This document shows, piece by piece, positions 24,000 to 57,174 of a stretch of DNA of 64,000 bases; within the stretch, counting starts at the first letter, position 1, and the number at the start of each line of letters is the position of its first letter. Made by a program: the position numbers and the translations under genes. Source of the DNA: Cyclobacteriaceae bacterium (GTDB lineage: Bacteria > Bacteroidota > Bacteroidia > Cytophagales > Cyclobacteriaceae); NCBI GenBank assembly GCA_040222715.1, contig JAVKCN010000015.1, forward strand, positions 39,163 through 103,162. Reading direction: 5' to 3'. The notes beneath the pieces are model-generated. The model had not been told where the DNA came from and did not search any database. It was given only the letters and a program-made list of their open reading frames with translations.

Positions 24000-24740
24000 C
24001 TAGACTGAAACTAATGTTTTACCCGCTTCTTTAGGGTTTTTCTTCAGTTTGGCGATGTTGAATACTTTTTGGGTCTTGTACTTGGTATAACTGCACTCAT
24101 AGTGCTTGATCAGAATACCTTCCTTCTCTTCGGTAGGTGACTCGATGAGTTCTTCGCGCACCACACGTAAGGTATAATAGCCGCAGGTAGGCGATTTCTC
24201 AGCATGCAAGTGGCCTTTGTATTTCTCAATCACAGTCTCATCCGAGGCTTCGTCAACCCAAACATCGTAATCCACTGAAAAGATGTTTTCTTCGGCTTGT
24301 TGTCCTTCATCCAGATATACATCTTCTTCTTCTTCACTCAACAACTTCATTTCGTTGCCAGCTTTAGAAAAACGAGGTTTGTAACGTAACTTATGCAACC
24401 GTTCTTCAATAAAAGTAGGATAATAGTATTCTAAATAATTAAAGAGTACTACTCCGATAATCAGGCCGAACATGATAGAAACAAACAGGCCAACAAACAC
24501 GAACATCCACTCAGTAGCCAGAATAGAAGTAACGTAGCAGGCTCCTGCCGAAATAAAGGCAATACTACCATACCAAAGCAGCTTCTTTTCGTTCTGGTTG
24601 ATAAAGTCGTATTTCGCTTTATAATCTTTGGTGGTCACTAACTTTGCAAATAGATACAGTAGTATTAAAATGCCCACTCCAATGCATACGAAGGTTCCGT
24701 AGAAGAGCACTTGTCTGAAAATTGCCAGAAAACTTTCCAT
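24000..24740 (-). CDS. Conserved hypothetical membrane protein
   Basis: Three TM segments, then a soluble acidic domain with a zinc-ribbon-like C-terminus. Confidence 0.7.
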   Translation of the reverse strand: MESFLAIFRQVLFYGTFVCIGVGILILLYLFAKLVTTKDYKAKYDFINQNEKKLLWYGSIAFISAGACYVTSILATEWMFVFVGLFVSIMFGLIIGVVLFNYLEYYYPTFIEERLHKLRYKPRFSKAGNEMKLLSEEEEDVYLDEGQQAEENIFSVDYDVWVDEASDETVIEKYKGHLHAEKSPTCGYYTLRVVREELIESPTEEKEGILIKHYECSYTKYKTQKVFNIAKLKKNPKEAGKTLVSV

Positions 24741-24977
24741 GACCTAACCTATTAAATGGTAAATATTTTAATAAAAGATTGTTGTACAAATAACGCAACT
24801 GAATAGCACAAAAGTACTCTAAAATTTAAAGAAAAGGGTGATTACCACTCCGTTATCTTAAGGGTTTTCTTACATACCTCACTAAAAAATATTTCCTAGA
24901 AAATATACGTAAAAAACGGCAATAAGTAAAGTCATCTTCCCAATACTCATTCCGCTAAGGTCAATCTAATCAGCCAC

Positions 24978-25792
24978 CTACAGTTTTTTTTCAATAAACC
25001 GGATAATCATTCTAAACAGATGCAACCGAGGCTCCTTTCCAACTAGTACTGTGGCTCCGATTTCGATAGTAGTAAAGACTCAAAGGGCTTATTTGCGGCA
25101 GCCAAAGTATCCTGCATCGCAACGGTATTTTAAAAGTGAACATGATCATCTCCGGTACCATGAGTTAGCAACAGATTGCCTTTTGGCTAGGATCAGGGGT
25201 AAGTATTTACCTTGGTCTTTCCGTATTGAATAGCAGGATTTGAAGATAGTGATTGGTGTAAATTGTATCATAAAACTGCCAGTTCGTGACGGGGCTTACA
25301 TAAACTCCGGCTTCAAACACCTCTTTCCCCAACAATATATTGCGTAAGGTCATGTAACCTCCGTAGCTCCATCCCAAAATGCCTATTGATGCTGATCTAC
25401 GCGGAAGAGCGAAGCAAAATAATGGGCACTGCTATTTGATCAGCTATTTCCCAACTACTCATAGGTGAAGGCACAGACCTCTTTCCCTCACGCTTCGGTG
25501 CCCTGATTATCCACATAAACCTCCAAACAGCCTTTTTCTTGCCAGGTAATGAAACCAGGGTTCGTGTGGATATCATATTGAGTTACATGCTGGTAATCAT
25601 CATTTTCGTCCTGCACCTGCGCGGTAGAGTAGCGCCCATTGCCACCCCGTTGATTCCCTGAACATCCACCTGCGTGAATAGCTCCCACTCATAGATATCC
25701 TCCAGGGTCGGAGATTAAGGTTAGACAAACTCTTCGGATTGGATAAAGATACTGGATGTCCGTAAATACAAAAAAACAAAGCTTCTTTTCAT
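24978..25792 (-). pseudogene. Dipeptidyl-peptidase IV (S9B) pseudogene with frameshifts, stops and a large internal deletion
   Basis: Manual translation across frames gives YVDNQGT, GILGWSYGGYMT (25374-25357), SPVTNWQFYDTIYT, LLLTHGTGDDHVHF* (25162-25145), NRSHS and FIEKKL* (TAG 24978). Confidence 0.85.
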
Positions 25793-26077
25793 AAAATTTG
25801 ATACTTCGGGCATTTTCTTACATGGCTATCTGTATAACTACTTAATAGCCTCACAGCCTATGTAATCCTTTTAAGAGAAACAAAACAGTTTGCTGGGAGT
25901 GCAGTTATATACGGTAACTATTGCTAAATATGATTTTTTGAAGTAATAGGCATCTATTTTCTGGGCATTTTTTTTAATACCAACGCGAGATGGCTTTCAT
26001 AAATACATTATTTCTTACAAGTAGTCCGCGTAACCTTATGTGTGTGGTATAGTTTATGTACAGATAATTCGATCCTT

Positions 26078-26398
26078 ATGGGCGCTAAAAAAAGAACTTT
26101 TAACGAATTAATTACGCAATCTGAGATACCAGTATTGGTCGATTTTTATGCTACCTGGTGTGGGCCCTGTCAGGCGCTGAGTCCGGTAGTAAGCGACGTT
26201 GCAAACAATTTTAAGGGTGAGCTCAAAGTAATCAAAGTAGATGTTGACAAAAACCAGCAGGCTGCTTTGAAATACGGTATTCAGGGAGTTCCTACACTGA
26301 TTTTATTTCAGAAAGGAAAAATTCTCTGGCGAAAATCAGGATTAATGACCCGCAAAGAACTCAGCAAACTGATACAAGGCGCCATGCACAAAAATTAA
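26078..26398 (+). CDS. trxA: Thioredoxin
   Basis: LVDFYATWCGPC; probable start ATG 26078. Confidence 0.93.
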   Translation: MGAKKRTFNELITQSEIPVLVDFYATWCGPCQALSPVVSDVANNFKGELKVIKVDVDKNQQAALKYGIQGVPTLILFQKGKILWRKSGLMTRKELSKLIQGAMHKN

Positions 26399-26446
26399 AT
26401 CTTTATAAACCACAAACTATTTTCCATTAAACAAACACAGACAATT

Positions 26447-27400
26447 ATGAAGAAATTATTGTATTCATTTTTATGGCTTTTTACTGTAGGAGGTTTTCTA
26501 TTTCTTACCAGTTGCGGTGAAGACGGCGAGGATATTCTCCCAATCACTAATCCTACAATTACCGGATTTCAGGTAGACAACTCAGACACTACCGGTATTA
26601 CTGCAGAGCCAGGTGATGCTGTTACTGTTAGTGTTGCCTATGATCTAGACGGTGCTACCGGTATCTCTTTAATTGCTTACATTGGCGATAGTGCAATCAT
26701 ATCGGCACTTCCGCTGAGTGAGACATCTGCTAACCCTATTCAGACCAATTTCACTGTTCCTGCTGATGCAATGGAAGATTTTACGGTAGAATACGAGTTA
26801 ATGGATGCTGATAGCGCATCAGTTGACAGTGAAAACTTCGACGTTACAGTAGACGTATCGATAGATGCAACGGAGTACTCAGCTGTATTGCTAGCCGCTC
26901 CGGTTGGACAACAAGCGGGCGAACGTACTTCTGAGACATTCTTCAGCGCTACGGACGGAGAAACTTATTCGGTAGACGATGTAGTTGCTGGTACCGATGT
27001 TTCTTCGGCTGATATTCACTTTGGTTATTATTACGGTAATACTGGTTTGGCATCTATTGCTTCTCCGGCAGAGTATCCAACCAGTGTATATGACCTGAGC
27101 GCTTCTGGAGCAAACTGGGGAACTCTTAACGAAACCATGTTCCGCGAAGTAACGGACCTTACAGCCGATGATTTTGACGCGCTTATCCGAAGCGATGAGG
27201 TTGCGGCTTTGTTTGAAACAGCAGGAAACGCTAATGAGGCCGGTATTCTCAATCAGATTGATGAAGGAGCAATTTATGCTTTCAGCTTTAGCGAAGGTGA
27301 TGAAACTCGTTTCGGTGTATTCATGGTAGAAGAAATTGAGCCAGGCTTCGAATCAAATGACTATATGACCATTTCGGTAAAAATAGCCAACGAAGAGTAA
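26447..27400 (+). CDS. Hypothetical acidic lipoprotein
   Basis: Lipobox LTSC; very Asp/Glu-rich, beta-rich sequence; own terminator. Confidence 0.75.
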   Translation: MKKLLYSFLWLFTVGGFLFLTSCGEDGEDILPITNPTITGFQVDNSDTTGITAEPGDAVTVSVAYDLDGATGISLIAYIGDSAIISALPLSETSANPIQTNFTVPADAMEDFTVEYELMDADSASVDSENFDVTVDVSIDATEYSAVLLAAPVGQQAGERTSETFFSATDGETYSVDDVVAGTDVSSADIHFGYYYGNTGLASIASPAEYPTSVYDLSASGANWGTLNETMFREVTDLTADDFDALIRSDEVAALFETAGNANEAGILNQIDEGAIYAFSFSEGDETRFGVFMVEEIEPGFESNDYMTISVKIANEE

Positions 27401-27422
27401 GAATAAATAATTAGTATTTAAT

Positions 27423-27451
27423 AAAAAAGGCTTCTTAAGGGAGCCTTTTTT
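27423..27451 (+). terminator. Rho-independent terminator
   Basis: AAAAAAGGCTTC-TTAAG-GGAGCCTTTTTT. Confidence 0.8.
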
Positions 27452-27752
27452 ACTTTGTATGAACCCTATAATACTTATTTCAGGATGGGTCATATGAGTG
27501 ATTCTTTACAACAGTTTTATCAGTTAAGTACCCGACCAGAAATAAGTATAATCAATACGTCATCGCGAACGAATGTGAGGCGATCTTACGCCACGGCAGA
27601 CCGCTTTGCAGAGCCTCGCGGTGACGTCTGGAAAAATGATACTTTAATTTGGTTGGATACTTATCTCAGATAATAATTGATGTAATTTTGCTCTGCAAAC
27701 ACGAAAGTCTGGTATTTCACTTTCTTATAAAAAACTTTCTTTAAATAGGAAC

Positions 27753-27783
27753 TTTGATTCTCGCATAGCGTTTCCTATATTTG
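27753..27783 (+). promoter_or_regulatory. Bacteroidota primary-sigma promoter of rplS
   Basis: TTTG (27753), 19-nt spacer, TATATTTG (27776-27783), ~40 nt before the ATG. Confidence 0.7.
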
Positions 27784-27824
27784 CAGTCCTTTTCTGGGGA
27801 AGACTATTTTCAACGAACGATATC

Positions 27825-28196
27825 ATGAGCGATCTACTAGCATTTGTGGAACAAGAAACCGCGCAGGATAAGCGGGCTAACCACCCTGACTTTCAGGCCG
27901 GAGATACTGTTAATGTCCACGTAAAAATTACGGAGGGAAATAAGGAACGTATTCAGCAATTCCAGGGTGTGGTTATTCAACGAAAGAATGGCAACACCAG
28001 TGGTGAAACCTTCACGGTACGTAAAGTATCAAACAGTGTAGGTGTTGAGCGTATCTTTCCTTTTTTATCTCCCAGCATCGAAAAAATTGAAGTTGTTCGG
28101 CGAGGTAAAGTTCGGCGTGCCCGCCTGTATTACCTGCGAGGACGTCAGGGAAAAGCGGCTCGTATCAAAGAGCGTCGTCAGCATTCTTCAAAATAA
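27825..28196 (+). CDS. rplS: 50S ribosomal protein L19
   Basis: [26 protein letters not shown]...GVERIFP...[13 protein letters not shown]. Confidence 0.98.
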
Positions 28197-39605: not shown

Positions 39606-40223
39606 CTAATAATCAAATGCTTTCTCCCCCGCTTCAATCGGAACATCCATCACATTTTCCTGAGGGGGCAACGGGCAACTGAAGGTAGGATTATAGGCGC
39701 AATACGGATTATAGGCGAGATTAAAGTCCATCTCCAGTGTTTTTTGCCCGGTGCGGCTGGGCATTTCTATATTCAGGTAACGCCCTCCACCGTACGTTTC
39801 TTCCCCACTGGTGGCATCAGCAAACGCCAGAAATAATATAGGGGGTTGCTGTTGCTCAAAGGGTTGCAGTACCAGCAGCCGCTGGGGTTGTCCCCCAAGT
39901 TCAAATTGAGCATAACCATAGCGAATATACTTCTCATCTTCCCCACTGCTCGTAGGCAAAACAAGTAGCTTATGATCATCAATTCGCTCCAGGCGGGCAG
40001 TCACCCGGTAGGTGGGATTGGGTTCGTAGTAGCTCAACTCCTGAAATGGAATGCTGTCCGGAGCAAAAGGAGATTCATCAGATCCCCGCAAAAAATTACG
40101 GATTTGCTCCCGCTCCCGCACAATGCGTTCAATGTACTCCTCTTCCGATTCTCCCCCCTGCAATGCGTACACAAAGATCCCAATCATAACCAACCCGACT
40201 ATCCCCAGAATTACCTTATTCAT
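39606..40223 (-). CDS. DUF1684 domain-containing protein
   Basis: FADATSGEETYGGGRYL...DFNLAYNPYCAYN...CPLPP. Confidence 0.9.
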   Translation of the reverse strand: MNKVILGIVGLVMIGIFVYALQGGESEEEYIERIVREREQIRNFLRGSDESPFAPDSIPFQELSYYEPNPTYRVTARLERIDDHKLLVLPTSSGEDEKYIRYGYAQFELGGQPQRLLVLQPFEQQQPPILFLAFADATSGEETYGGGRYLNIEMPSRTGQKTLEMDFNLAYNPYCAYNPTFSCPLPPQENVMDVPIEAGEKAFDY

Positions 40224-40669
40224 AAGTATTGCTATTATATGTATGCCCTATTCGACACAAATTCACCAGGTATAAAAATAATAGCTTAGTCATTAGCGGG
40301 CAGCGTTGGGGTATAATTTTTTTCATCAGGAAAGCTTCTCTTTCATTTATCCTCTCAGATTTTTGGTATTAGTCTGGTACATGCCTGAATGATATCGGTA
40401 AACATTCGTTCCTTTCTTCTCCCATCGTCTTTTGCATATTCCCCCATAGAGTTTCTTCTACAACGATCTTACTTAAACGCGAAATTACTTTTGCCAGCCA
40501 CACAAACTCTGGATAGAGAAACCCCTATATACAAAAACCGAAGAAGATCCCTCCTTCGGTGCTGATTACTCTGTCAAAAACTATTATCCGTTTTAGCAGA
40601 TTCGTTTAGAAAATCATTTTGTAAAGATTCTCTCTGCTCTAAAACGACGACACTGTCAAATATAACTCA

Positions 40670-41230
40670 TTAGTATTTTCGGGCATATAGGTGTACCTCA
40701 GTGATTGCTGTACGGGGAAAAGAATACGATAATCCTTTATTCAAATAAGATTTTTCCGGCTGGGTCGTGAAAAAAGCTGCAGAATTCGGTACGCGAACTC
40801 CCCAGGAACCAGAAGATTGTAACTCCCCGGGAAGAATGTAAGCGAGATGTCCGATATTAGATTTATTGATATAAACCGCTACCACTGCTTTGTTTTCATT
40901 GGCTAGTTTTTGGGCTTTGGCAAGCACTTCCTGATCGTATCCTTTTCCCAGCAGCGTCCAGCGATTGTCGCTTTGTAAATAATCCTGTATTTCGCTCACC
41001 AGCATGTATCGGCCTTTTGTAGATGTATAAAAATCGTTAACTCTGTAAATGGTTTTCAGGGTCTGGCCGATAAAGGCATTGCACGAATTAACACCAATGT
41101 TGGAAGTATTCTCGCATGATTTGAATTGATTGATTTCCTCATGCAGTTCGCTACTCCAGTTTCGGTTAATTGTTTGCGCATGAGAAAGAGAGAAGCACAG
41201 TATGATAAAAGAGGTAATGACAAGTTTCAT
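40670..41230 (-). CDS. Secreted hypothetical protein, possible Cys/His peptidoglycan amidase-like fold
   Basis: Signal peptide ending in SHA; SCNAFI and GHLAYI motifs. Confidence 0.6.
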   Translation of the reverse strand: MKLVITSFIILCFSLSHAQTINRNWSSELHEEINQFKSCENTSNIGVNSCNAFIGQTLKTIYRVNDFYTSTKGRYMLVSEIQDYLQSDNRWTLLGKGYDQEVLAKAQKLANENKAVVAVYINKSNIGHLAYILPGELQSSGSWGVRVPNSAAFFTTQPEKSYLNKGLSYSFPRTAITEVHLYARKY

Positions 41231-41779
41231 AAGTAAGTACTGTTTGTGAGATTACAAATTTCATCAAATATGCTTCGTTCCACTAACCGTATATATTATT
41301 TTTGTTACATTGTTTATTAAAATAATGTAATTAATGCATTATTTTATTACTCTCCCCAATCTTGATTGCAAGCAATTTTTCTCAGCGTATCAGTATACTT
41401 ACTTATCAGTTAATGCACCTCCTTCATTTTAAGGCTATATATGTGAATCTGTATCTGGCAATATCATAGGTATTATCTACTACTATTTTGCGCAATGCAA
41501 AATTTACAAATCCCCTTCTGGGCAAAATATTTTATTATTATGCTTGCCAAAAACCCTGAAAATGTATTGTAGAACATCAAGGACCTAACCGTTTTTTACT
41601 ATAGAAGTAATATATTATCTCGCCTGACATGCCAGCTACACCACAAACCTTACACGAACTTTGTCCGCCATTTCTGCCTTCTACCACTCATTGAAAAGGG
41701 TATGCTCAATGTGATGGAGTTGCATCTTCTCTTTGCTATAATCCCCCCTGATCAATAAGCTACCTGATTTTCTTAATGA

Positions 41780-43087
41780 CAATAGTCCGTAGAGTTTTGA
41801 CTGGGGAATAAATTAAAAAGGCGGAAGCATAGTTTTGAGGTTGCGAGACCTTAAACGAGCACTTCCACCTATGAATGTAGAAACACTCACAGCACTAATA
41901 TTGGACAAAATGCCTGACATAGGCAAATGGCAACGAGACTTTATGATTCAGCTGATGCCTTTACTGTTGACCATCCGTGGCCGCCACAATTTTGAGAACC
42001 TATCTCGCTATAGTTCTTTCAACGAGGCGACCTACCGGGTACGCTATGAAAAGAGCTTTGCCTTTGAGCGGTTCAACAAGGGGTTGATCTTATCTATGCC
42101 CGAAGAGGAACGCATCATTGCTTTTGATCCTAGTTACCTGCCTAAAAGCGGAAAGCATACCCCAGGTACGGGCTACTTCTGGTCTGGCTGCGCCAACACT
42201 ACTAAGTACGGCCTGGAGATTAGCGGCTTTGCCAGTGTGGGATTAGAGAGTCGTACGGCCCTGCACCTGTACGCCAAGCAAACCATTGGTCAACAAAAAT
42301 ATGATTCACTACTGGACTATTACGCCAGCCTAGTGATAGAGCAAACTGATCAATTGAAAGCTGTCTCTGACAAGGTAGTAGCCGATGGCTACTTCTGGCG
42401 CAGACCTTTCGTTGATGCAGTGACTGGACAGGGTTTCACTTTCATTAGTAAGTTACCTAGTAACGCGGTATTGCAGTATCCTCATCTAGGGCCAAAGACC
42501 AAGCGCAGAGGCAGGCCCCCTAAGTATCAGGGACGCGTAGAGCGGCTTGCTTTGGATAAGGCTCACTTTACCCCCTGTCTGCAAGAAGGTAATATGATGG
42601 CTTATCAAGGCAAAGTCTATGTGAAAGCATTGGATCGGCTAGTGAAGTGTGTCATCGTGCAGATCACTAAAAAAGATGGCTCGGTGAGAGCCGAAGCCTT
42701 TTTTTGCACAGACCCTACTATGGAGGGTGCTAAAGTACTGGAATGCTATCCCTTGCGCTTCCAAATCGAGTTTCTGTACCGCGACGCTAAGCAACATACC
42801 GGTCTTACCGAATGCCAAGCGCGTAGTGAGCAGAGCATACATACTCATATCAACGCCAGTTTGACGGCCGTATCATTAGCCAAAGTAGCATACGCTTGGC
42901 CTCAAGCAGGGCAAGAAAGAAAACCATTCTCTTTATCCAGCATCAAAACCCGATACTTCAATGAACATTTGCTGAACCGATTTTTTACCGAGTTCGGCAT
43001 TTCCCCCGAAACTCATCAAAATTCACCACAGTACCATACATTATTCAACTACGGCTGCATTGCCGCTTAAAACTCTACAGACTATTG
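41780..43087 (+). mobile_element. Insertion sequence, IS4 superfamily (DDE), 1308 bp
   Basis: TIRs CAATAGTCCGTAGAGTTTT (41780-41798) and AAAACTCTACAGACTATTG (43069-43087), 18/19 match; direct repeat TAATGA at 41774-41779 and 43088-43093. Confidence 0.92.
41871..43070 (+). CDS. DDE transposase
   Basis: AFDPSYLPKSG, VADGYF, and Y(2)R(3)E(6)K signature YPLRFQIEFLYRDAK. Confidence 0.92.
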   Translation: MNVETLTALILDKMPDIGKWQRDFMIQLMPLLLTIRGRHNFENLSRYSSFNEATYRVRYEKSFAFERFNKGLILSMPEEERIIAFDPSYLPKSGKHTPGTGYFWSGCANTTKYGLEISGFASVGLESRTALHLYAKQTIGQQKYDSLLDYYASLVIEQTDQLKAVSDKVVADGYFWRRPFVDAVTGQGFTFISKLPSNAVLQYPHLGPKTKRRGRPPKYQGRVERLALDKAHFTPCLQEGNMMAYQGKVYVKALDRLVKCVIVQITKKDGSVRAEAFFCTDPTMEGAKVLECYPLRFQIEFLYRDAKQHTGLTECQARSEQSIHTHINASLTAVSLAKVAYAWPQAGQERKPFSLSSIKTRYFNEHLLNRFFTEFGISPETHQNSPQYHTLFNYGCIAA

Positions 43088-48301: not shown

Positions 48302-49024
48302 ATGACGGCTTCGGTTGATTCCTTGCTATTTCTTTCCTGGGAAAGAACCTTTCTGCTAACTCTCCTTTTCTTCGGATTGTTGTACTTTATCTCAGCCGGG
48401 CTGGCCAGCGGATTAGCAAAGTGGCTCTCTCACCGCCAACAAGGGCAATCCATGCACACCACTCCGGTGACAAACCGACAGATTAGAAAAGAGATTCGCC
48501 GTTCGCTGGTTTCTATTGTAGTCTTCGCATTGCTGGCCATTCCGGTGCAGGTTGCCTATGCCCATCAGATTATTCATATCAACTGGTCGTTGCAGGTGTA
48601 TACGCTGATTCCTGAAATACTGGTTCTATTCTTCTGGAATGAGTTGCACTTTTATGCCTGTCACCGTTTATTGCATCATCCCTGGTTGTTTCGCCGGGTA
48701 CATTATCAGCACCATCAGTCTACTACGCCTACTCCCTACGCAACCTACAGCTTTCACTGGTTTGAGGCTTTCTTGCTGGGCACGGTGATCTACCTTCCAC
48801 TCAGCCTATTTTCATTTCAGTACCTGGCCCTGCTCTCGCTGCCGGTGCTTAGTATTCTTCTCAATACATTAGGGCACTGGGATTATGATCTGGCACCTGA
48901 AAAATCGCCGGATCACTGGCTTAAGTTCTCTTTTCGCCATAGCCAGCACCACCGCCGGGTGCGGGGAAACTACGGTTTCTTTCTGCCTTATTTCGATCAA
49001 CTCTTTCGTACCAAAACACCATGA
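48302..49024 (+). CDS. Sterol desaturase / fatty acid hydroxylase family protein
   Basis: His boxes HRLLH, HYQHH, HSQHH; membrane segments. Confidence 0.88.
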   Translation: MTASVDSLLFLSWERTFLLTLLFFGLLYFISAGLASGLAKWLSHRQQGQSMHTTPVTNRQIRKEIRRSLVSIVVFALLAIPVQVAYAHQIIHINWSLQVYTLIPEILVLFFWNELHFYACHRLLHHPWLFRRVHYQHHQSTTPTPYATYSFHWFEAFLLGTVIYLPLSLFSFQYLALLSLPVLSILLNTLGHWDYDLAPEKSPDHWLKFSFRHSQHHRRVRGNYGFFLPYFDQLFRTKTP

Positions 49025-50886
49025 TGAACCAAGCCAAAGCCTATATTACCAGCGCCGGAGCATTCCTGCCGGGCGAACCCATCAGTAACGAAGACATTGA
49101 AGAATATCTGGGAAAAATCCACGGCCAGCCTTCCCGTACCCGGCAGCGCATGCTTCGGCAAAACGGTATTCAGTCTCGCCACTACGCCCTGGATCGTCAG
49201 CAACAGGCAACCCATTCATTAGCCAACATGGCGGCTCGGGCCATTGATGCCTGTCTTAGCTCGGCCACTATTTCTCCTTCCTCCATAGACTTCCTGGCCG
49301 CCGCTACTACCCAGGGCGACCTACCAGTACCCGGTTTTGCCAGCATGGTACACGCCGAAAGCGGACTGGATAGTTGCGAGATTGCTACTCTGCACGGCGT
49401 TTGCGGCAGCGGAATGATGGCAATTAAGAATGCCTGGATGCAGGTGCTCCTGGGCGAGAAAAAAAACGCGCTGGTTTGTGCCGGAGAATTTGCCAGCCGG
49501 ATGTTCAAGGCCTCCCGCTTCGAGGGACAGCTATCAAAAAATGAGCATCTCTCATTAGAAACCGATTTCTTACGATGGATGCTTTCGGACGGAGCAGGCG
49601 CACTGCTCCTCCAACCCCAACCGGCCCCCCAAGGACTATCACTCGCGATCGACTGGATTGACATCCGCTCCTATGCTCACCTTTTTGATCCTTGTATGTA
49701 CGCTGGCTACAATAAAGATGATACTGCTTTCTCTTCGTGGCTGGACTATGCCGACTTTGCCCAGGCAGATAGGGCTGGAGCTATTAACCTAAAACAGGAC
49801 ATCAAACTCGTAGACAATATTGTAAAACTGGGCGTGCGGCGTTTTTTTGAGTTAGTAGATGAGGGAAATATCAAGCCCGATGCCATTGACTACCTGCTCT
49901 GCCATTATTCATCTCATTACTTTAAAGAACCTATCCTGAACCTGATGGAAAAGGGCGGAGTGGTGATTCCCGAGGAAAAATGGTTTACCAATCTGTATAC
50001 TAAAGGCAATACCGGCTCAGCCTCAATATTTATTATGCTGGAAGAATTGCTACGGGAGCGGCCACTACAGGCGGGGCAGAAAATTCTGTGCATGGTACCG
50101 GAGAGCGGACGTTTTCTGACTTCCTTTATGCAATTGACGGTGGTAGGTGCTCCGAAAGCACCAACTCGCGCATATACCAAAGCCATTCAGGCTCCTACCA
50201 TTCGCACCAGCGGCGGGGAAACCCAGGCGTGGCTGGTGCGCCAACTGACCAACGTGTGGATCACCTTCGAAACAAACCTCCGGCAGGTGCCCATCGTGGC
50301 TAAAATCCACCAAGGAAACCTATCGCTGGAGGAATACCGGGAGTTACTACTGAATCTCCGCCAGCAGGTGGTGGATGGTTCACAATGGATTGCCCGTGCG
50401 GCATCGCACGTGAGCATGGAATTCTTTGAAGTACGCTCTTCCTTTATTCGGCATGCCCGCGATGAGCACCGGGATTACCAGTTGCTGGAGAAAAACTACC
50501 AGAATGTGGGCGGAAAGCTGGAAGATATTATATCAGGTGAGAAAAACGTAGGAAGCGAAGCGTTGAGCGCCTTTATGTTTCACCGAGCCAGTCAGCCCAA
50601 CCCCTTTGACCTGCTCGGAGGCATGTTCATTATTGAGGGGCTGGGTAACCGGATGGCTGGGAGTTGGGGAAGAGCGATTCAGGAGCAATTGAACCTTCGG
50701 GAAGATCAGGTATCGTTTTTACTCTATCACGAAAGCAGCGATGCTAATGATAACCACTTCGAGCGCTTTGAAAAAGCCATTCAATCCGAATTACTGACTA
50801 TGCCCATTGCCCAACGGATTGTGAAGACGGCAAAAGTGGTCGCAAAATTGTATGAATTACAATTACGAGAACTAGGAAACTTCTAA
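49021..50886 (+). CDS. Ketoacyl-synthase III (StlD/DarB-like) fused to a C-terminal heme-oxygenase-like (TenA/PqqC-fold) redox domain
   Basis: KS triad HGVCGSG / LCHYSS / KGNTGSAS; C-terminal ~230-aa helical domain with RHARDEH, IEGLG, YHESSD...H. Confidence 0.8.
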   Translation: MMNQAKAYITSAGAFLPGEPISNEDIEEYLGKIHGQPSRTRQRMLRQNGIQSRHYALDRQQQATHSLANMAARAIDACLSSATISPSSIDFLAAATTQGDLPVPGFASMVHAESGLDSCEIATLHGVCGSGMMAIKNAWMQVLLGEKKNALVCAGEFASRMFKASRFEGQLSKNEHLSLETDFLRWMLSDGAGALLLQPQPAPQGLSLAIDWIDIRSYAHLFDPCMYAGYNKDDTAFSSWLDYADFAQADRAGAINLKQDIKLVDNIVKLGVRRFFELVDEGNIKPDAIDYLLCHYSSHYFKEPILNLMEKGGVVIPEEKWFTNLYTKGNTGSASIFIMLEELLRERPLQAGQKILCMVPESGRFLTSFMQLTVVGAPKAPTRAYTKAIQAPTIRTSGGETQAWLVRQLTNVWITFETNLRQVPIVAKIHQGNLSLEEYRELLLNLRQQVVDGSQWIARAASHVSMEFFEVRSSFIRHARDEHRDYQLLEKNYQNVGGKLEDIISGEKNVGSEALSAFMFHRASQPNPFDLLGGMFIIEGLGNRMAGSWGRAIQEQLNLREDQVSFLLYHESSDANDNHFERFEKAIQSELLTMPIAQRIVKTAKVVAKLYELQLRELGNF

Positions 50887-50889
50887 GCG

Positions 50890-51807
50890 ATGCGTTCATC
50901 TATTGACTATTTTGATCGGTTGGAGCATGATCCCCAAGATCCCAGCCCCTGGCAGGCCTTATTTTACGACCGCAGCATTCCATTTGATCAGCATGCGAAG
51001 GCCGCTTTTCTGTACGATTCACAATCGAAGTCGCGGCAGTTCTTACACCCCTTTGTCCGCTTGTTCGCCCGACTGGCTATCGGAGTGTTGCAGTTGCTGA
51101 AGGTCTTCTGGCCTAAAGTGCTTACCTCGCCTAAGCTGCTGCACCTCAGTTTGTACTGGGGCATGAAGTACTGGGTGACCCCGGAGGCCAATTACCTGAT
51201 TCTGCGCCACTTTAATCTGGGTTCGGAGGTGCTTCGGTTCATTGCCGACAATGTGCCCGGCATATCCCTCGAAACCACGCCCCTCAAACCTACCCGGCTG
51301 GCCGAAGTGAAGGATAACCTCTTTCTCCAGCACGATCTCAACCTATATAATTTCGTGATCAAGCTGAATAAGCTGATGCAGCAGGAGAAGGTGCAGATTG
51401 TGCCAGTGGAAAACCCCGATTTCTCCGCTATCTCTACCGAAGACTTTCCCTTCGAATCATTCCGCGACGGCTGGACGAACTTTCTGGATCTGAGTACAGC
51501 GATTGAAATTTTCACCCCAGTGTACCAGTTTTTCCTGACCAACCGGGATTTCTGGCGAGCATCCAATTCCCTGCAACTGGATGAAACGATTGGCTTGTAC
51601 GCGGCTACCATCCTGAACTGCCCCGAAAAGCTGGTCGCGCTTAACAATAAACACCCCATGATTCCGCTTTCTGTGCTTAATGCGGGCTTTCGCCTGACTC
51701 TACACGGTCTCTCTACCGAAGTACTGCACGGCTTACTGGTGGAACAAAAGAAGAAGCAGTCCCCGCCAGCTACGATGGTCTCACCCGAAAAAGTCGGTAA
51801 AGTATAG
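50890..51807 (+). CDS. Hypothetical protein (resembles what I recall as the DUF6999 family; unverified)
   Basis: 305-aa ORF starting 3 nt after the KS stop; motifs LILRHF, QHDLNLYN, QLDETIG. Confidence 0.6.
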   Translation: MRSSIDYFDRLEHDPQDPSPWQALFYDRSIPFDQHAKAAFLYDSQSKSRQFLHPFVRLFARLAIGVLQLLKVFWPKVLTSPKLLHLSLYWGMKYWVTPEANYLILRHFNLGSEVLRFIADNVPGISLETTPLKPTRLAEVKDNLFLQHDLNLYNFVIKLNKLMQQEKVQIVPVENPDFSAISTEDFPFESFRDGWTNFLDLSTAIEIFTPVYQFFLTNRDFWRASNSLQLDETIGLYAATILNCPEKLVALNNKHPMIPLSVLNAGFRLTLHGLSTEVLHGLLVEQKKKQSPPATMVSPEKVGKV

Positions 51808-51839: not shown

Positions 51840-52862
51840 GTGAATAATCGTATTGCCGACAGCTATAATATTGTATCCAAACTCTCGCCTAAGCGAATTG
51901 CCAATGCATCGCGCATTCTGGGCAGTTATTACCACTCGCGTTTTACTGGCCAACCTAATATCTCGGGTTTGCCTATCAGTCTGTCGGTAGAACCAACCAC
52001 CTCCTGCAATCTGCGCTGCCCCGAGTGCCCCAGTGGTTTGCGTTCTTTTACCCGCCCTACCGGACGACTACCCATTGAACTGTACCGAGATGTTATTGAC
52101 GAACTAGCGGATACGCTCATTTATCTGCTGCTTTATTTTCAGGGCGAACCTTATCTGCATCCGCAATTTCTGGAGCTGGTTCAATATGCGTCTCAAAAAA
52201 ATATCTACACGGCTACCTCCACCAACGCTCATTTTCTGCACGATGAAGCGGCTCGTAAAACCGTAGCTTCCGGACTGGATCGCCTGATTATTTCTATTGA
52301 CGGTACCACGCAGGAAACATACGAATCATATCGAATTGGCGGTAAGCTAACGAAGGTGCTGGAAGGGGCAGCGAACATTGTGCGTTGGAAGAAGCAGCTT
52401 CGCTCCCGCACCCCACAGGTTATTTTTCAGTTTCTGGTCGTGCGCCCCAACGAGCATCAGATTGAAGAAGTGCAGCAGCTAGCCCGGCAGATCGGGGTAG
52501 ATGAGGTCCGGTTTAAGACAGCTCAAATCTATGACTACGAACAAGGCTCTCCGCTGATACCAACCCAGGAGAAATACGCCCGCTACCGGCAACAGGCTGA
52601 CGGCAGCTTTGCCATTAAAAACAAACTGCTAGATCACTGCTGGAAGATGTGGCACTCCTGCGTAATGACTTGGGACGGGCGTATTGTGCCCTGCTGTTTT
52701 GATAAAGATGCCCACCACGTGCTGGGAAGTGTGCAGGAAAAATCATTCCGGGAAGTATGGCACAGCGAAGCCTACCGGCAATTCCGGACCCAGCTTTTAC
52801 AATCGCGCCAGCAAATTGATATTTGCCAGAACTGTACGGAAGGCACGAAGGTATGGGCATAA
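51840..52862 (+). CDS. Radical SAM / SPASM domain protein
   Basis: CNLRCPEC; YFQGEP; SPASM cysteines C-KMW-SC...PCCFD...CQNC. Confidence 0.92.
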   Translation: MNNRIADSYNIVSKLSPKRIANASRILGSYYHSRFTGQPNISGLPISLSVEPTTSCNLRCPECPSGLRSFTRPTGRLPIELYRDVIDELADTLIYLLLYFQGEPYLHPQFLELVQYASQKNIYTATSTNAHFLHDEAARKTVASGLDRLIISIDGTTQETYESYRIGGKLTKVLEGAANIVRWKKQLRSRTPQVIFQFLVVRPNEHQIEEVQQLARQIGVDEVRFKTAQIYDYEQGSPLIPTQEKYARYRQQADGSFAIKNKLLDHCWKMWHSCVMTWDGRIVPCCFDKDAHHVLGSVQEKSFREVWHSEAYRQFRTQLLQSRQQIDICQNCTEGTKVWA

Positions 52863-53083: not shown

Positions 53084-53248
53084 ATGAAAGGTCGTATGAA
53101 AGTGTTAAAATTTACCCTGGCTATCTTCTTCTTGGCAGCAGTCAGCAGTTGCTCTTACAAGACATGCCCTACCTATTCTAAAATAGAGGCTCCTACCAAC
53201 CTCGTGGTAACCACCCAGCAAGCTAATAACCTGACTCCTGTCCGGTAA
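53084..53248 (+). CDS. Small lipoprotein (54 aa or 50 aa), below the ORF-track cutoff
   Basis: MKGRMKVLKFTLAIFFLAAVSSCSYKTCPTYSKIEAPTNLVVTTQQANNLTPVR*; basic n-region, hydrophobic h-region, lipobox VSSC. Confidence 0.65.
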   Translation: MKGRMKVLKFTLAIFFLAAVSSCSYKTCPTYSKIEAPTNLVVTTQQANNLTPVR

Positions 53249-54473
53249 CTTCAACGGAGACTCCTGCTTTTTGTAAATCTTCCCAGAAGCGGGGGTATGA
53301 TTTCTTAACCACATCCGGGTTCTCCAGGGTGAGGGGAGTACACATCGCCAGTGGGGCAAACGCCATCGCCATCCGGTGATCATCGTAGGTATCAATAATC
53401 AAATTATCCCGCGCAATATCTCCCTCCGAAGGAATCAGCTCCCAGGTACCGTCTTTCTCCTCCAGAAAAGCTCCAATCTTGGCTAGCTCCTGTTGCAGGG
53501 CCAGAATACGATCGGTTTCTTTGATACGCAAACTCTCCAACCCCGTCATGGTACAACGTACCCCTTTGGCCGCACAGGTGACGGCCACGGTTTGGGCCAG
53601 ATCCGGGCAGTCACTGAAATCAAAAGAAAAATCTTTTGCACCCTCCTGCCGGGTCAGCCGCACTCCGTCCGACTCAAATGTTGAGCTAACTCCCAGATTT
53701 TCCATAATGCGTACGATCGCCTGATCGCCCTGAAAAGAATCCTGACGCAACCCCATCAGTTTTACCTCAGCCTGACCAGCCAATGCCACCATACTATACC
53801 AGTAGCTCGCACCCGACCAGTCTGATTCAATCGTATAGCTGGCTGACTGGTAAACTCCCGGTTCTATGCGAATAGCCTGTTCGTTCTCCCAGGTATGGGG
53901 CACTCCGAATTGCTGCATCAATCCCAGGGTCATGGTGATATAAGGACGACTACCGACTTTACCCATTAGCTCCAGTAACAGCCCATGGTCAAATTTAGGA
54001 GCGATCATTAGCAGGGCGGAGATGTACTGGCTACTCACATCGCCTCGCATCCGCACGTATTTCATCTCCTGATCCAGCGTCATGCCCCGCACATGTACGG
54101 GCGGGTAACCTTCTTCCTGCATATACTGAATATCCGCTCCAATCTCCCGTAAAGCATCCACCAGAATACGCACGGGCCGCTGGTGCATCCGGGGGGTGCC
54201 CTTGATGACTTTGCCCAGACTATTCACGGCACAATAGGCAATCAGGAAACGCATGGTAGTTCCGGCATCCAGTACATCCAACTCTGGCTCGATGGACTGG
54301 AGTAGCTTCTGCATGGTTTGGGTATCCCGTGCTTCAGACAGGTTTTTCAGGGTAATTTCTTCATCCGTCAGGGCCTGAATGATCAGGGCCCGGTTGCTCT
54401 CGCTCTTGGAAGAAGGCAGGGTTACCGTGGTTGAAAGGGTACTATCTGCCTGCTTAATCTGTATATATTGCAA
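53223..54473 (-). CDS. aroA: 3-phosphoshikimate 1-carboxyvinyltransferase
   Basis: SKSESNR, DAGTTMRF, VSSQYISALL, KETDR, DDHRMAM. Confidence 0.96.
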   Translation of the reverse strand: MQYIQIKQADSTLSTTVTLPSSKSESNRALIIQALTDEEITLKNLSEARDTQTMQKLLQSIEPELDVLDAGTTMRFLIAYCAVNSLGKVIKGTPRMHQRPVRILVDALREIGADIQYMQEEGYPPVHVRGMTLDQEMKYVRMRGDVSSQYISALLMIAPKFDHGLLLELMGKVGSRPYITMTLGLMQQFGVPHTWENEQAIRIEPGVYQSASYTIESDWSGASYWYSMVALAGQAEVKLMGLRQDSFQGDQAIVRIMENLGVSSTFESDGVRLTRQEGAKDFSFDFSDCPDLAQTVAVTCAAKGVRCTMTGLESLRIKETDRILALQQELAKIGAFLEEKDGTWELIPSEGDIARDNLIIDTYDDHRMAMAFAPLAMCTPLTLENPDVVKKSYPRFWEDLQKAGVSVEVTGQESGY

Positions 54474-54639
54474 AAGAAATTCGTTTTTATGTCTACAATA
54501 ATCTCACTAACCCAATGCCTCGCCTCAGCCAATACAAATATCTCAAAAAAATTGGTGAGAGTACGGTTGAAGTTCTGGTTATTTTTTTTGTACCTTGACG
54601 ATTAACCTAATTTTTTATTCCACCGAAACTTTTTCATGC

Positions 54640-54882
54640 ATGGATAATTCAGAAAAAACCCTCATTGCTTTTTTAGTAGGAGCCATTGCCGGAACCATGG
54701 CAGGATTGCTAGTAGCTCCCAACAGCGGTCAGAAGACTCGAAAGAAACTGAACAAATCAGCCAACGATGTTTTATATGATCTGGAAGATGCCTGGGAAGA
54801 GAGTGCTGAGCGTATCAAAGATCTGGCAGATACTGCCGTAGAAGAGCTGGAGAAATACAGCAAAAAACTGACTAAGAAGTAG
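54640..54882 (+). CDS. YtxH domain-containing protein
   Basis: AFLVGAIAGTMAGLLVAPNSGQKTRKKL. Confidence 0.88.
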   Translation: MDNSEKTLIAFLVGAIAGTMAGLLVAPNSGQKTRKKLNKSANDVLYDLEDAWEESAERIKDLADTAVEELEKYSKKLTKK

Positions 54883-54902
54883 TAATTATATTCCAATCAT
54901 AG

Positions 54903-54942
54903 AAGCCGAATGGAGGTTACCCCCCTGTTCGGCTTTTTTTTT
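54903..54942 (+). terminator. Rho-independent terminator
   Basis: AAGCCGAA...TTCGGCTT followed by a poly-T run. Confidence 0.75.
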
Positions 54943-54948
54943 GCCCGA

Positions 54949-55989
54949 TCAGAGCCCCTGATAGTAGGTTAAGGCTTCCTGAACGTCCTTCTCTAGGATC
55001 GGCACATCATAATTGGCCAGCCCTATGCGCTCCAGCAGGGTGCAGCGAATCGTTTGCTGATCGTTTTTCTTATCCTGCTTAGTCAACTGCACAATATCTT
55101 CTACTGCTTCCGTCGGAATTTCAGGCTGACCGAAAACAGCGATAATGAAGTCGTTGATTTCTTCGGCTTCCTCCGGCGAAAGGCCGGTATGCCGGACCGA
55201 AAGGAAGGTTTCGGCAATCATGCCCACAGCAATGGCTTCTCCGTGTAATAAGGGACGGTCCGTCTCCAGAAAATAGCTTTCTACCGCATGCCCGATGGTA
55301 TGCCCGAAGTTCAGGACTTTCCGTAAGCCCCCTTCCAGAAAGTCTTTGTCAACGACCCGGGATTTCACCTGCACCGAATGCCCAATATGAGCACTCCAGT
55401 TCTGACGGGCAAAAGGCGCGCTTCGCAACGTATTCCAATATGCCGCATCGGCAATCAATGCATGCTTGATGACCTCGGCAAAGCCAGAGCGAAGCTCCCG
55501 TTCCGGTAACGTTTGCAGAAACACCGGATCGATGAAGACCTGCTTCGGCTCCTGAAACAGCCCGATGTGGTTCTTGAACCCCTGAAAGTCGATGCCGAGT
55601 TTACCGCCCACCGAAGCATCTACCTGGGCTAATAAAGTGGTCGGCAGGTTGATGAAGGGCATCCCCCGCTTATAGGTTGCCGCACAAAAACCTCCCATAT
55701 CACCGATCACCCCTCCACCGAGGTTAATCAGCAGGGATTTACGGTCGAAATGCGCTTCGGTCAGATGGTTCCAGATAATGGAACAGGTATCCAGGTTCTT
55801 TTGTAATTCACCGCTTTTTACCTCAATCACTGTATGCGCTGCGGGTAGCACATCCTGAATCAGCGGATAGCAGTGGGCAGCGGTATTTTCATCTACCACC
55901 ACAGCCAGGCGGGAAAAGCTTCCCTCTTCCAGAAATTTAGAAAGAGTGGCAGCAATGTCTTTGGTAATCGTTACGTTCTCGGCAGGCAT
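54949..55989 (-). CDS. aroB: 3-dehydroquinate synthase
   Basis: GGGVIGDMGGF, PTTLLAQVDASVGGK, LNFGHTIGHA, HGEA. Confidence 0.96.
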   Translation of the reverse strand: MPAENVTITKDIAATLSKFLEEGSFSRLAVVVDENTAAHCYPLIQDVLPAAHTVIEVKSGELQKNLDTCSIIWNHLTEAHFDRKSLLINLGGGVIGDMGGFCAATYKRGMPFINLPTTLLAQVDASVGGKLGIDFQGFKNHIGLFQEPKQVFIDPVFLQTLPERELRSGFAEVIKHALIADAAYWNTLRSAPFARQNWSAHIGHSVQVKSRVVDKDFLEGGLRKVLNFGHTIGHAVESYFLETDRPLLHGEAIAVGMIAETFLSVRHTGLSPEEAEEINDFIIAVFGQPEIPTEAVEDIVQLTKQDKKNDQQTIRCTLLERIGLANYDVPILEKDVQEALTYYQGL

Positions 55990-56055
55990 GGTTGATTGTT
56001 CTACAGACTGAATACTGAACAGAGATATGATATAAGCACGAGAGAAAGAGGCGGA

Positions 56056-57174
56056 CTAGGATTCTACCCGCAAGCCCGATTCCGTTTCGTTTTCGTTCTG
56101 GATATTATCCATCACTTCGGTTTGCTTTCGGATAGATTCTACGTGCATCAGGTTAAACAGATCCACGATAAATTTTTTGCGCAGATTCAGGTCTTTGGCC
56201 CAGTCCTTCCGCGACTCAAACACATCGTTCCAGCGATCAAGCTGAAAAGCAGCCACGTTGTTCTTTTTCTTCCACGCTCCGATCTGAGAGACCAGATCCA
56301 GGCGATGAGCCAATAGTTCTACCATTTCCCGGTCAGCATGGTCAATCTGGGTACGCAAATCTTCCAGATGGGTCACGTATTCAATATCCTCGGAAGAAGG
56401 CTTGCGAATTTGCAGTCCTCGAATAATCTCTCCCAGTGCCTGCGGGGTGACCTGCTGGCGGGCATCGCTCCAGGCATTTTCCGGGTCGCGGTGGGTTTCT
56501 ATGATCAGTCCGTCAAAGTTCAGGTCCATGGCAATCTGCGAGATCTCGGCCACGCCTTCCCGCTTACCAATAATATGGCTGGGGTCGCAGATCATCGGAA
56601 GATTGGGTAATTGCCGCTTCATCTCAATGGGCAACTGCCAGGTAGGCACATTGCGGAACCGAGTTTTCTGGTACGTAGAGAATCCTCGGTGAATGGCTCC
56701 CAGCTTGGCCACTCCAGCCTGGTGCAGGCGTTCCAATGCTCCCATCCACAGGGCTAGATCCGGGTTAATAGGGTTTTTGACCAGCACCGGCACATCGCAG
56801 CCACGTACGGCGTCGGCAATCTCCTGCACAATAAACGGGCTCACGGTGCTGCGGGCTCCTACCCAGAGCACATCAATTCCGTAGTGCAGGGCTTCTTCCA
56901 CGTGCATGGCGTTCGCCACCTCTACAGCAAATTGCACATTCAGCTCTTTCTTAATGTCTTTGATCCACTGCAAAGCTTCCTGGCCAATGCCCTCAAAGGT
57001 ATTGGGTCGGGTACGGGGTTTCCATACTCCCGCCCGCATCAGGGTCACGCCCTGCTCTTTCACGGCCTTCACTGTTTCGAACAGTTGCTCTTCGGTTTCG
57101 GCACTGCAAGGTCCGGCAATAACGAGCGGGTCCGTTTTACCTATATTCCACTGATGTAATTCCTTAAGTTCCAT
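56056..57174 (-). CDS. Bifunctional DAHP synthase / chorismate mutase
   Basis: IAGPCSAE, WKPRTRP, IHRGF, DPSH; C-terminal AroQ-like LRTQIDHAD...RLDLV. Confidence 0.9.
   Translation of the reverse strand: MELKELHQWNIGKTDPLVIAGPCSAETEEQLFETVKAVKEQGVTLMRAGVWKPRTRPNTFEGIGQEALQWIKDIKKELNVQFAVEVANAMHVEEALHYGIDVLWVGARSTVSPFIVQEIADAVRGCDVPVLVKNPINPDLALWMGALERLHQAGVAKLGAIHRGFSTYQKTRFRNVPTWQLPIEMKRQLPNLPMICDPSHIIGKREGVAEISQIAMDLNFDGLIIETHRDPENAWSDARQQVTPQALGEIIRGLQIRKPSSEDIEYVTHLEDLRTQIDHADREMVELLAHRLDLVSQIGAWKKKNNVAAFQLDRWNDVFESRKDWAKDLNLRKKFIVDLFNLMHVESIRKQTEVMDNIQNENETESGLRVES

Follow-up and report, generated by a model that had tools for sequence, protein, structure and literature searches.

Here we report a gene cassette found in a 64,000-nt stretch of a Cyclobacteriaceae genome (assembly GCA_040222715.1, contig JAVKCN010000015.1, positions 39,163 to 103,162; hereafter the window). 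Its central gene fuses a ketosynthase (KS), probably of the StlD/DarB type, to a heme-oxygenase-like (HO-like) domain, and is followed immediately by a gene for a DUF6999 protein and preceded by one for a membrane hydroxylase. The cassette is real, widespread and uncharacterised: the HO-like domain occurs in at least 581 of 185,579 species genomes, and we found no description of DUF6999, nor of a fusion between a ketosynthase and a heme-oxygenase-like dimetal oxidase (HDO), in the searched literature. The cassette probably makes an oxidised lipid not yet described. By analogy with the known DarB/StlD systems, we favour the reading that it provides a DarA-independent route to an oxidised, fatty-acid-derived lipid of the dialkyl-cyclohexanedione or dialkylresorcinol type, to which we give a probability of about 0.5.

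The forward strand between 48302 and 52862 carries a head-to-tail series of four genes, with intergenic gaps of -4, 3 and 32 nt, and the first three are tightly coupled. The TGA of the hydroxylase gene shares bases with the ATG of the fusion gene in a 4-nt ATGA overlap at 49021-49024 (…CCATGATGAAC…). The TAA of the fusion gene at 50884-50886 is followed by GCG and then by the ATG of the DUF6999 gene at 50890, leaving a gap of 3 nt. The features of the cassette are:

48302..49024, + strand: membrane enzyme of the fatty acid hydroxylase superfamily (membrane diiron type), 240 aa, from PF04116, His boxes and hydrophobic segments
49021-50886, + strand: fusion gene, KS plus HO-like domain, 621 aa, from the StlD alignment and from AlphaFold2 (AF2) and Foldseek
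49036..50145, + strand: probable StlD/DarB-type ketosynthase III (ketosynthase/cyclase) domain, aa 6-375, from NF005293 and 5GK0
50146..50217, + strand: interdomain linker of ~24 aa, a low-confidence AF2 region and the break point of split genes
50218..50883, + strand: HO-like putative dimetal oxidase domain, aa ~400-621, from AF2, Foldseek and the profile match to 3DDE
50890..51807, + strand: DUF6999 protein, 305 aa, from PF22523

A first-pass annotation of this DNA had proposed a compact operon at 48302-51807, opening with a His-box hydroxylase that overlaps the next start by ATGA, and without a recognisable DarA-type cyclase or acyl carrier protein (ACP). The overlap and the tight coupling of the three genes were confirmed; a fourth co-directional gene (51840-52862) lies beyond the proposed interval. 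Given gaps of only -4, 3 and 32 nt, there is no ACP gene inside the cassette. Domain annotation identified no ACP in or near the cassette and, among the window genes, no DarA-like gene within ~6 kb on either side of it, in agreement with the initial claim.

The KS domain (aa 6-375) aligned end to end with StlD in the PDB (5GK0; E 1.1e-85, 43% identity over 367 aa), whereas its other PDB matches, to FabH-type structures, had E values of 1e-13 or weaker. Among NCBIfam models the best match was NF005293, the StlD/DarB family, covering model positions 1-378 of 378 with 428.5 bits (E 2e-128) against a curated cut-off of 450; the next-best models, of the FabH type, reached at most 85 bits. Cys128 (49402-49404), His295 (49903-49905) and Asn330 (50008-50010) are in register with the StlD catalytic triad. 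Glu156 (49486-49488) aligns with StlD Glu154, a residue reported to be catalytic in StlD. The StlD motifs aligned with Cys128, His295, Asn330 and Glu156 are GACAAG, HYSSEYF, KGNTGSAS and TSEVPS, respectively. At least one homologue, from Niastella (P0025), already carries the NCBI name StlD/DarB family. The intact Cys-His-Asn triad and the StlD/DarB type suggested at first sight were thus recovered, and judging from its sequence the domain is probably a StlD/DarB-type KS that is a peripheral member of that family.

The C-terminal part of the fusion had been described initially as a helical, HO-like domain with clusters of Glu and His, and both the fold and the candidate ligands, whose absence had been named as refuting the proposal, were found. 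Its AF2 model, built from an alignment of 76 sequences, is helical and confident (predicted local distance difference test, pLDDT, 93.8; predicted template modelling score, pTM, 0.91). Foldseek searches of the PDB matched it to 3DDE with template modelling (TM) scores of 0.79-0.84 and to structures of CADD (8VAG, 8VA9, 1RCW) with TM 0.75-0.85, all with probability 1.00; TenA, HmuO, PqqC and UndA were also matched with probability 1.00. A family profile of the domain matched the sequence of 3DDE as well (E 5e-9), with the ligand positions aligned, and a precomputed match to PF14518 (“iron-containing redox enzyme”) is present in many homologues of the fusion.

Seven residues are invariant in the 76 sequences, which come from several phyla: H478, E482, D485, E539, H570, D574 and H579. 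The first three occupy positions i, i+4 and i+7 of one helix, and E539 lies in a FIIEGLG motif. The last three form H570-x3-D574-x2(+2)-H579 in the lineage of the window, which has a 2-residue insertion, and the canonical H-x3-D-x2-H in most family members. In the profile alignment these candidate ligands align with H80, E84, H87, a Glu, and the H-x3-D-x2-H of 3DDE. With its modelled fold and its seven invariant candidate ligands, comparable to the ~3 His and 3 carboxylates on the core helices of HDOs, the domain resembles these enzymes and is a probable dimetal oxidase; we infer that it binds metal and uses O2. Oxidative decarboxylations or desaturations that depend on O2 are known from HDOs such as UndA and BesC. 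The linker and the start of the domain are modelled less confidently (pLDDT 69-88 in the first blocks) and have no secondary structure before domain residue 21; the split genes found in alphaproteobacteria break at this linker.

The 305-aa protein encoded 3 nt after the fusion stop, which the first-pass annotation had left without a family while listing a DarA-type cyclase as one outcome that would overturn its view, matched PF22523 (DUF6999) along the entire profile (405 bits, E 1e-121, positions 1-275 of 275). No other family was matched in Pfam at E up to 10 and none in NCBIfam, and the PDB yielded no sequence relatives, whether by single sequence or by profile. Its AF2 model is all-helical and confident (pLDDT 89.8, pTM 0.87), and Foldseek found no fold relative in the PDB (best E 0.43, TM <0.2). 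Since its matches are confined to DUF6999, without relatives in NCBIfam or among PDB sequences and folds, the protein is by these searches not a DarA-type aromatase. The family is small: a profile run against 1.84 billion representative proteins retrieved 401 clusters at 50% identity, and its members are nearly all single-domain proteins of ~290-310 aa. Two longer members appear to have second domains (a GATase_2 fragment in P0372 and an HO-like fragment in P0391); we discarded these, as they look like chimeric or fragmentary gene calls. Even members with 24% identity keep H107, P134, H148, D149, D200, D231, H272 and E277 unchanged; with its three His and four acidic residues, this set suggests that the active site depends on metal. 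One hydrophobic helix (residues 55-73) may act as a membrane anchor. As its confident model lacks any PDB relative and its His/Asp/Glu set is invariant, DUF6999 is well placed to represent a new enzyme fold.

The upstream gene belongs to the fatty acid hydroxylase/sterol desaturase superfamily. The protein scores 85.2 bits against the Pfam model PF04116 (cut-off 31, E 7e-24), has the His clusters H116-x4-H121 followed by HH125-126, H134-x2-HH138 and H213-x2-HH217, and contains three to four hydrophobic segments, among them 15-39, 64-91 and 154-190, in keeping with membrane helices. We rejected it as an OlsE equivalog, for which the model gives 19.8 bits against 475.

Among the matches listed, the carriers of the HO-like domain are mostly aerobic Bacteroidota, and also include Paenibacillus, Planctomycetota, Verrucomicrobiota, Burkholderiales and Glaciecola. 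Full-length fusions with 60-85% identity are found in environmental Bacteroidota of many kinds (Cytophagales, Chitinophagales, Sphingobacteriales and Flavobacteriales), and all three proteins keep 55-74% identity across Bacteroidota classes and ~57-66% to Paenibacillus. Gene order was counted in the best 80 of the at least 581 loci, from a scan with one genome per species. The KS and the HO-like domain lie in one open reading frame (ORF) in 73 of the 74 evaluable loci, and the DUF6999 gene starts at most 150 nt downstream in 63 of 71 and at most 1.2 kb downstream in all 71. This survey of fused versus split genes, which had been suggested in the first-pass annotation, returned split but adjacent KS, HO-like and DUF6999 genes, in this order, in two alphaproteobacterial loci, one from Parvularcula marina (L005, 6822-9588) and one on an alphaproteobacterial contig (L006, 6836-9579). 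In a further locus, on a 10-Mb long-read contig (L007), the KS is apparently frameshifted and was not counted as split. The HO-like and DUF6999 genes of the two split loci overlap by 8 nt.

In 45 of 68 evaluable loci the gene immediately before the fusion is a homologue of the hydroxylase, and in 2 Paenibacillus loci it is convergent and downstream of the cassette (47 adjacent in all); it is a frequent accessory outside the invariant core. In ~9 loci a fatty-acid desaturase gene (PF00487) is inserted between the fusion and DUF6999:

L045, 6723-7505: inserted PF00487 desaturase
L063, 6714-7502: inserted PF00487 desaturase
L076, 1999-2769: inserted PF00487 desaturase
L042, L044, L054, L061, L073 and L086: likewise

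These desaturases have 256-262 aa and the motifs HRxxxH, HRxHH and HxxHH, and come from a sub-group of Bacteroidota (Cyclobacteriaceae, Saprospiraceae and Putridiphycobacter). From the counts of fusions, DUF6999 adjacency, split genes and accessories, the invariant core is therefore the KS, the HO-like domain and DUF6999, with the hydroxylase and the desaturase as recurrent accessories. The KS/HDO fusion first noticed in the window is thus real, but the hydroxylase listed with it does not belong to the core and the architecture is a common one, found in at least 581 species genomes.

The genes flanking the cassette vary between all lineages examined. Flagellimonas algicola AsT0115 has two copies on two contigs (L058 and L071), neither with an upstream fatty acid hydroxylase. 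In Chitinophaga pinensis DSM 2588 the cassette (P0080, on a 9.127-Mb contig) adjoins recBCD and glycoside-hydrolase genes. The canonical darB/darA pair of this species (Cpin_6850/6851) makes the dialkylresorcinol of flexirubin (PMC3992019). As C. pinensis carries darAB and, at an unrelated locus, the cassette, the latter is a separate system. Upstream of the C. pinensis fusion (L001, 7180-7887) is a gene for a 235-aa protein without Pfam match, which may be truncated; its N-terminus resembles GT1-type glycosyltransferases, and we consequently rejected it as a divergent hydroxylase. The neighbourhood of L006 contains COQ9 and UbiD genes and a PF02441 flavoprotein gene (possibly UbiX-like), probably by coincidence. 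A link to ubiquinone, also hinted at by a faint Coq4 match near L003, was rejected because these neighbours are not recurrent; moreover, Bacteroidota use menaquinone.

We propose the following scheme for the favoured DarA-independent route, which supports the initial suggestion that the fusion may condense and then oxidatively tailor a lipid. For want of a dedicated ACP in the cassette, the KS would draw on primary fatty-acid metabolism for two fatty-acyl thioesters, one 3-oxoacyl and one 2-enoyl. As with DarB and StlD, their head-to-head joining through Michael and Claisen reactions would give a carboxy-cyclohexanedione (carboxy-CHD). In the known pathways, DarB/StlD convert a 3-oxoacyl and a 2-enoyl thioester into carboxy-CHDs, which are the substrates of DarA and lose CO2 on aromatisation (PMC6836626); StlC is correspondingly the aromatase and StlD the KS/cyclase (bioRxiv 10.1101/2022.10.20.513026). 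The tethered HO-like domain, with dinuclear Fe (or Fe/Mn) and O2, would then oxidise the carboxy-CHD in cis. The most economical step would be an oxidative decarboxylation like those of UndA or BesC, aromatising the carboxy-CHD to a dialkylresorcinol, the job of DarA/StlC elsewhere. Such a decarboxylative aromatisation would explain the absent DarA, and we put forward this particular role of the HO-like domain, drawn by analogy, only tentatively. DUF6999, as a soluble or peripheral-membrane helical protein, may tailor the ring or the alkyl chains further, and so may the membrane hydroxylase and, in some lineages, the desaturase, giving a hydroxylated or unsaturated phenolic or quinone-like lipid. 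That the KS and the HO-like domain are fused, and that all three proteins are conserved across phyla, speaks in favour of an unstable intermediate being channelled.

In an extended form of the scheme, the cassette would be a widespread and hitherto overlooked pathway to oxidised dialkyl-aromatic or CHD lipids of a new class. There the HO-like domain would be an in-cis, O2-dependent decarboxylative aromatase that replaces DarA without being homologous to it, DUF6999 would be a metalloenzyme whose fold is absent from the PDB, and the product a membrane or signalling lipid common to aerobic Bacteroidota, Paenibacillus, Planctomycetota and some Proteobacteria. We consider this full version possible, if rather doubtful.

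Several observations weigh against a DarA-independent route as drawn above. In addition to falling below the cut-off of NF005293, the KS reaches 374.8 bits against the DarB model NF053539, whose cut-off is 550. The match of PF14518 to the window fusion has 25.2 bits for a gathering score of 28.9. Where 3DDE has a His (H87) the fusion has an Asp (D485), and hence its metal site may differ from that of the characterised HDOs. TenA and PqqC are proteins of the heme oxygenase fold that work without metals. DUF6999 could itself be the aromatase, with the HO-like domain in another role. A search of public runs returned no RNA runs, its matches being DNA metagenome or culture contigs only. Finally, DarB clades without DarA have been suggested to react differently (PMC6836626).

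Three alternatives were weighed. In the first, the KS condenses its substrates head to head either without cyclising them or in pyrone fashion, as OleA, PpyS or CorB do, and the HO-like domain decarboxylates or desaturates the resulting beta-keto acid in the manner of UndA. The product, a long-chain ketone, alkene or pyrone, would then be modified by the hydroxylase, the desaturase and DUF6999. The sub-threshold scores of the KS against both the StlD/DarB and the DarB models agree with this, as do the proposal that DarA-less DarB homologues do not make carboxy-CHDs (PMC6836626), the presence of UndA among the structural matches of the HO-like domain, and the accessory genes, which are of acyl-chain-modifying types. 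However, by family and by structure the best match of the KS is StlD/DarB by a wide margin (428 against 85 bits; other PDB matches at E >=1e-13), and not FabH, OleA or the pyrone synthases, and the residue aligned with StlD Glu154 is kept. We therefore consider a ketone, alkene or pyrone product unlikely.

The second alternative, which we hold to be decidedly unlikely, makes the HO-like domain a non-redox module, either metal-free and substrate-binding, scaffolding or regulatory, in the manner of TenA/PqqC or of a lipid-binding helical bundle; DUF6999 would then be the true oxidase or aromatase replacing DarA. TenA, PqqC and true heme oxygenases are indeed strong structural matches too, PF14518 is below threshold, one canonical His position is occupied by Asp, and DUF6999 is an obligate partner with an invariant His/Asp/Glu set of its own. 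Yet seven invariant His, Asp and Glu residues at ligand-bearing helix positions, kept in 76 sequences from several phyla and aligned with 3DDE, are unexpected in a passive module, and the closest structural matches of known function are the CADD structures 8VAG and 8VA9, of a dimetal enzyme. It is very improbable that the cassette makes a housekeeping product needed for aerobic growth (a cofactor-like or respiratory-type quinonoid or a structural membrane lipid) instead of a specialised metabolite: the unusually strong conservation of the three proteins (55-74% in Bacteroidota, ~57-66% to Paenibacillus), the ordinary chromosomal housekeeping genes around the cassette in the window and the coming together of several oxygen-dependent enzyme types would fit, but the lineage-dependent flanks, the patchy occurrence (at least 581 of 185,579 species genomes), the two copies in one genome (L058, L071) and a cross-phylum identity that looks like horizontal transfer are typical of accessory metabolism.

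Directly downstream of the cassette lies the fourth gene of the head-to-tail run, 32 nt 3' of the DUF6999 gene and co-directional with it:

51840..52862, + strand: radical SAM/SPASM protein, 340 aa, from PF04055 and PF13186 and the cluster motif CNLRCPEC

All its NCBIfam matches are far under their cut-offs (for example, 127 bits against 380 for a tungsten-cofactor maturase model). A radical SAM gene follows the cassette in one of the 80 loci, L008, the nearest relative, and conserved co-location was thus not seen. The gene is probably a lineage-specific neighbour outside the conserved system, and we rejected it as a pathway member on this count.

The surrounding chromosomal genes are ordinary: an apiosidase-like hydrolase, a GNAT protein, a SprT-like protein, a MurQ-like SIS protein, a BadF/BadG-type ATPase and proline dehydrogenase. 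On the reverse strand, 53223-57174 contains a shikimate run with aroA (EPSP synthase), aroB (3-dehydroquinate synthase) and a fusion of DAHP synthase and chorismate mutase, interrupted by a small YtxH-like gene on the forward strand (54595-54882). We rejected these genes as feeders of the pathway, as they lie on the opposite strand and in a neighbourhood not seen in the other annotated lineages. A DDE transposase gene (PF01609/PF13546; 41835-43070, + strand) lies ~5 kb upstream of the cassette, beside a low-GC segment (40001-42000, GC 0.39), and may mark an insertion sequence. A further low-GC region, 24000-28000 (GC 0.40-0.41), includes ~1.3 kb (24740-26042) without an ORF of at least 100 aa and without Rfam or tRNA match; it is flanked by genes for two proteins without Pfam match (24000-24740 and 26447-27400), thioredoxin and ribosomal protein L19. 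No Rfam family or tRNA was found in the window, and sigma-70 promoter and terminator scans gave background levels, the sigma-70 model being ill suited to Bacteroidota promoters. The closest database proteins, with 98-99% identity, are from Roseihalotalea indica (Cytophagales).

Ketosynthases of the DarB/StlD type and HDOs are both studied actively in enzymology and natural-product research, and their natural fusion, conserved in hundreds of species, suggests a gap in what is known of bacterial lipid or phenolic-lipid chemistry. If the DarA-independent route is true, it would bring a new HDO reaction on a polyketide-like substrate and possibly, with DUF6999, a new enzyme fold. With just two genes (three if the hydroxylase is counted) and no accompanying ACP gene, the core looks practicable to express heterologously and to reconstitute in vitro. 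Given its abundance in Bacteroidota of soil, rhizosphere and sea, the product could matter ecologically, with roles in membrane adaptation, in signalling or as an antioxidant.

Compared with known systems, the HO-like domain shares with the HDOs (CADD, UndA, BesC, SznF and the uncharacterised Sden_3740, PDB 3DDE) the helical fold and the His and carboxylate residues on the ligand-bearing helices. It differs from them in its covalent fusion to a ketosynthase, in having Asp instead of His at one ligand position and, in the lineage of the window, in the 2-residue insertion in the H-x3-D-x2-H helix. A similar logic is seen in SrsABC of Streptomyces (alkylresorcinols and alkylquinones) and ArsABCD of Azotobacter, where the alkyl-resorcinol core built by a condensing enzyme becomes, through oxygenases, a membrane-associated phenolic or quinone lipid. 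These are, however, type III polyketide synthase systems with flavin or methyltransferase tailoring, without sequence relation to the HO-like, DUF6999 or fatty acid hydroxylase proteins.

The closest relatives of the cassette by KS type are DarAB(C) and StlCDE, known from Pseudomonas, Photorhabdus, the flexirubin clusters of Chitinophaga and Flavobacterium, and the cyanobacterial bartolosides; the KS shares 43% identity with StlD over its full length and keeps the triad. The bartoloside and microcarbonin clusters, like the cassette, have no dedicated ACP and include lipid-tailoring genes (PMC6836626). Unlike DarAB and StlCD, the cassette lacks the DarA/StlC aromatase, in place of which it has the fused HO-like domain and the obligate DUF6999 neighbour. 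Its KS lies slightly under the curated family cut-off, and in C. pinensis it coexists with a canonical darAB. Cyanobacteria also have “DarA-less” DarB homologues, in small clusters without an adjacent aromatase and with products that are unknown (PMC6836626). The cassette shares with these a DarB-type KS without an adjacent aromatase, while its own family, mainly from Bacteroidota, has the fusion and DUF6999 as its defining traits.

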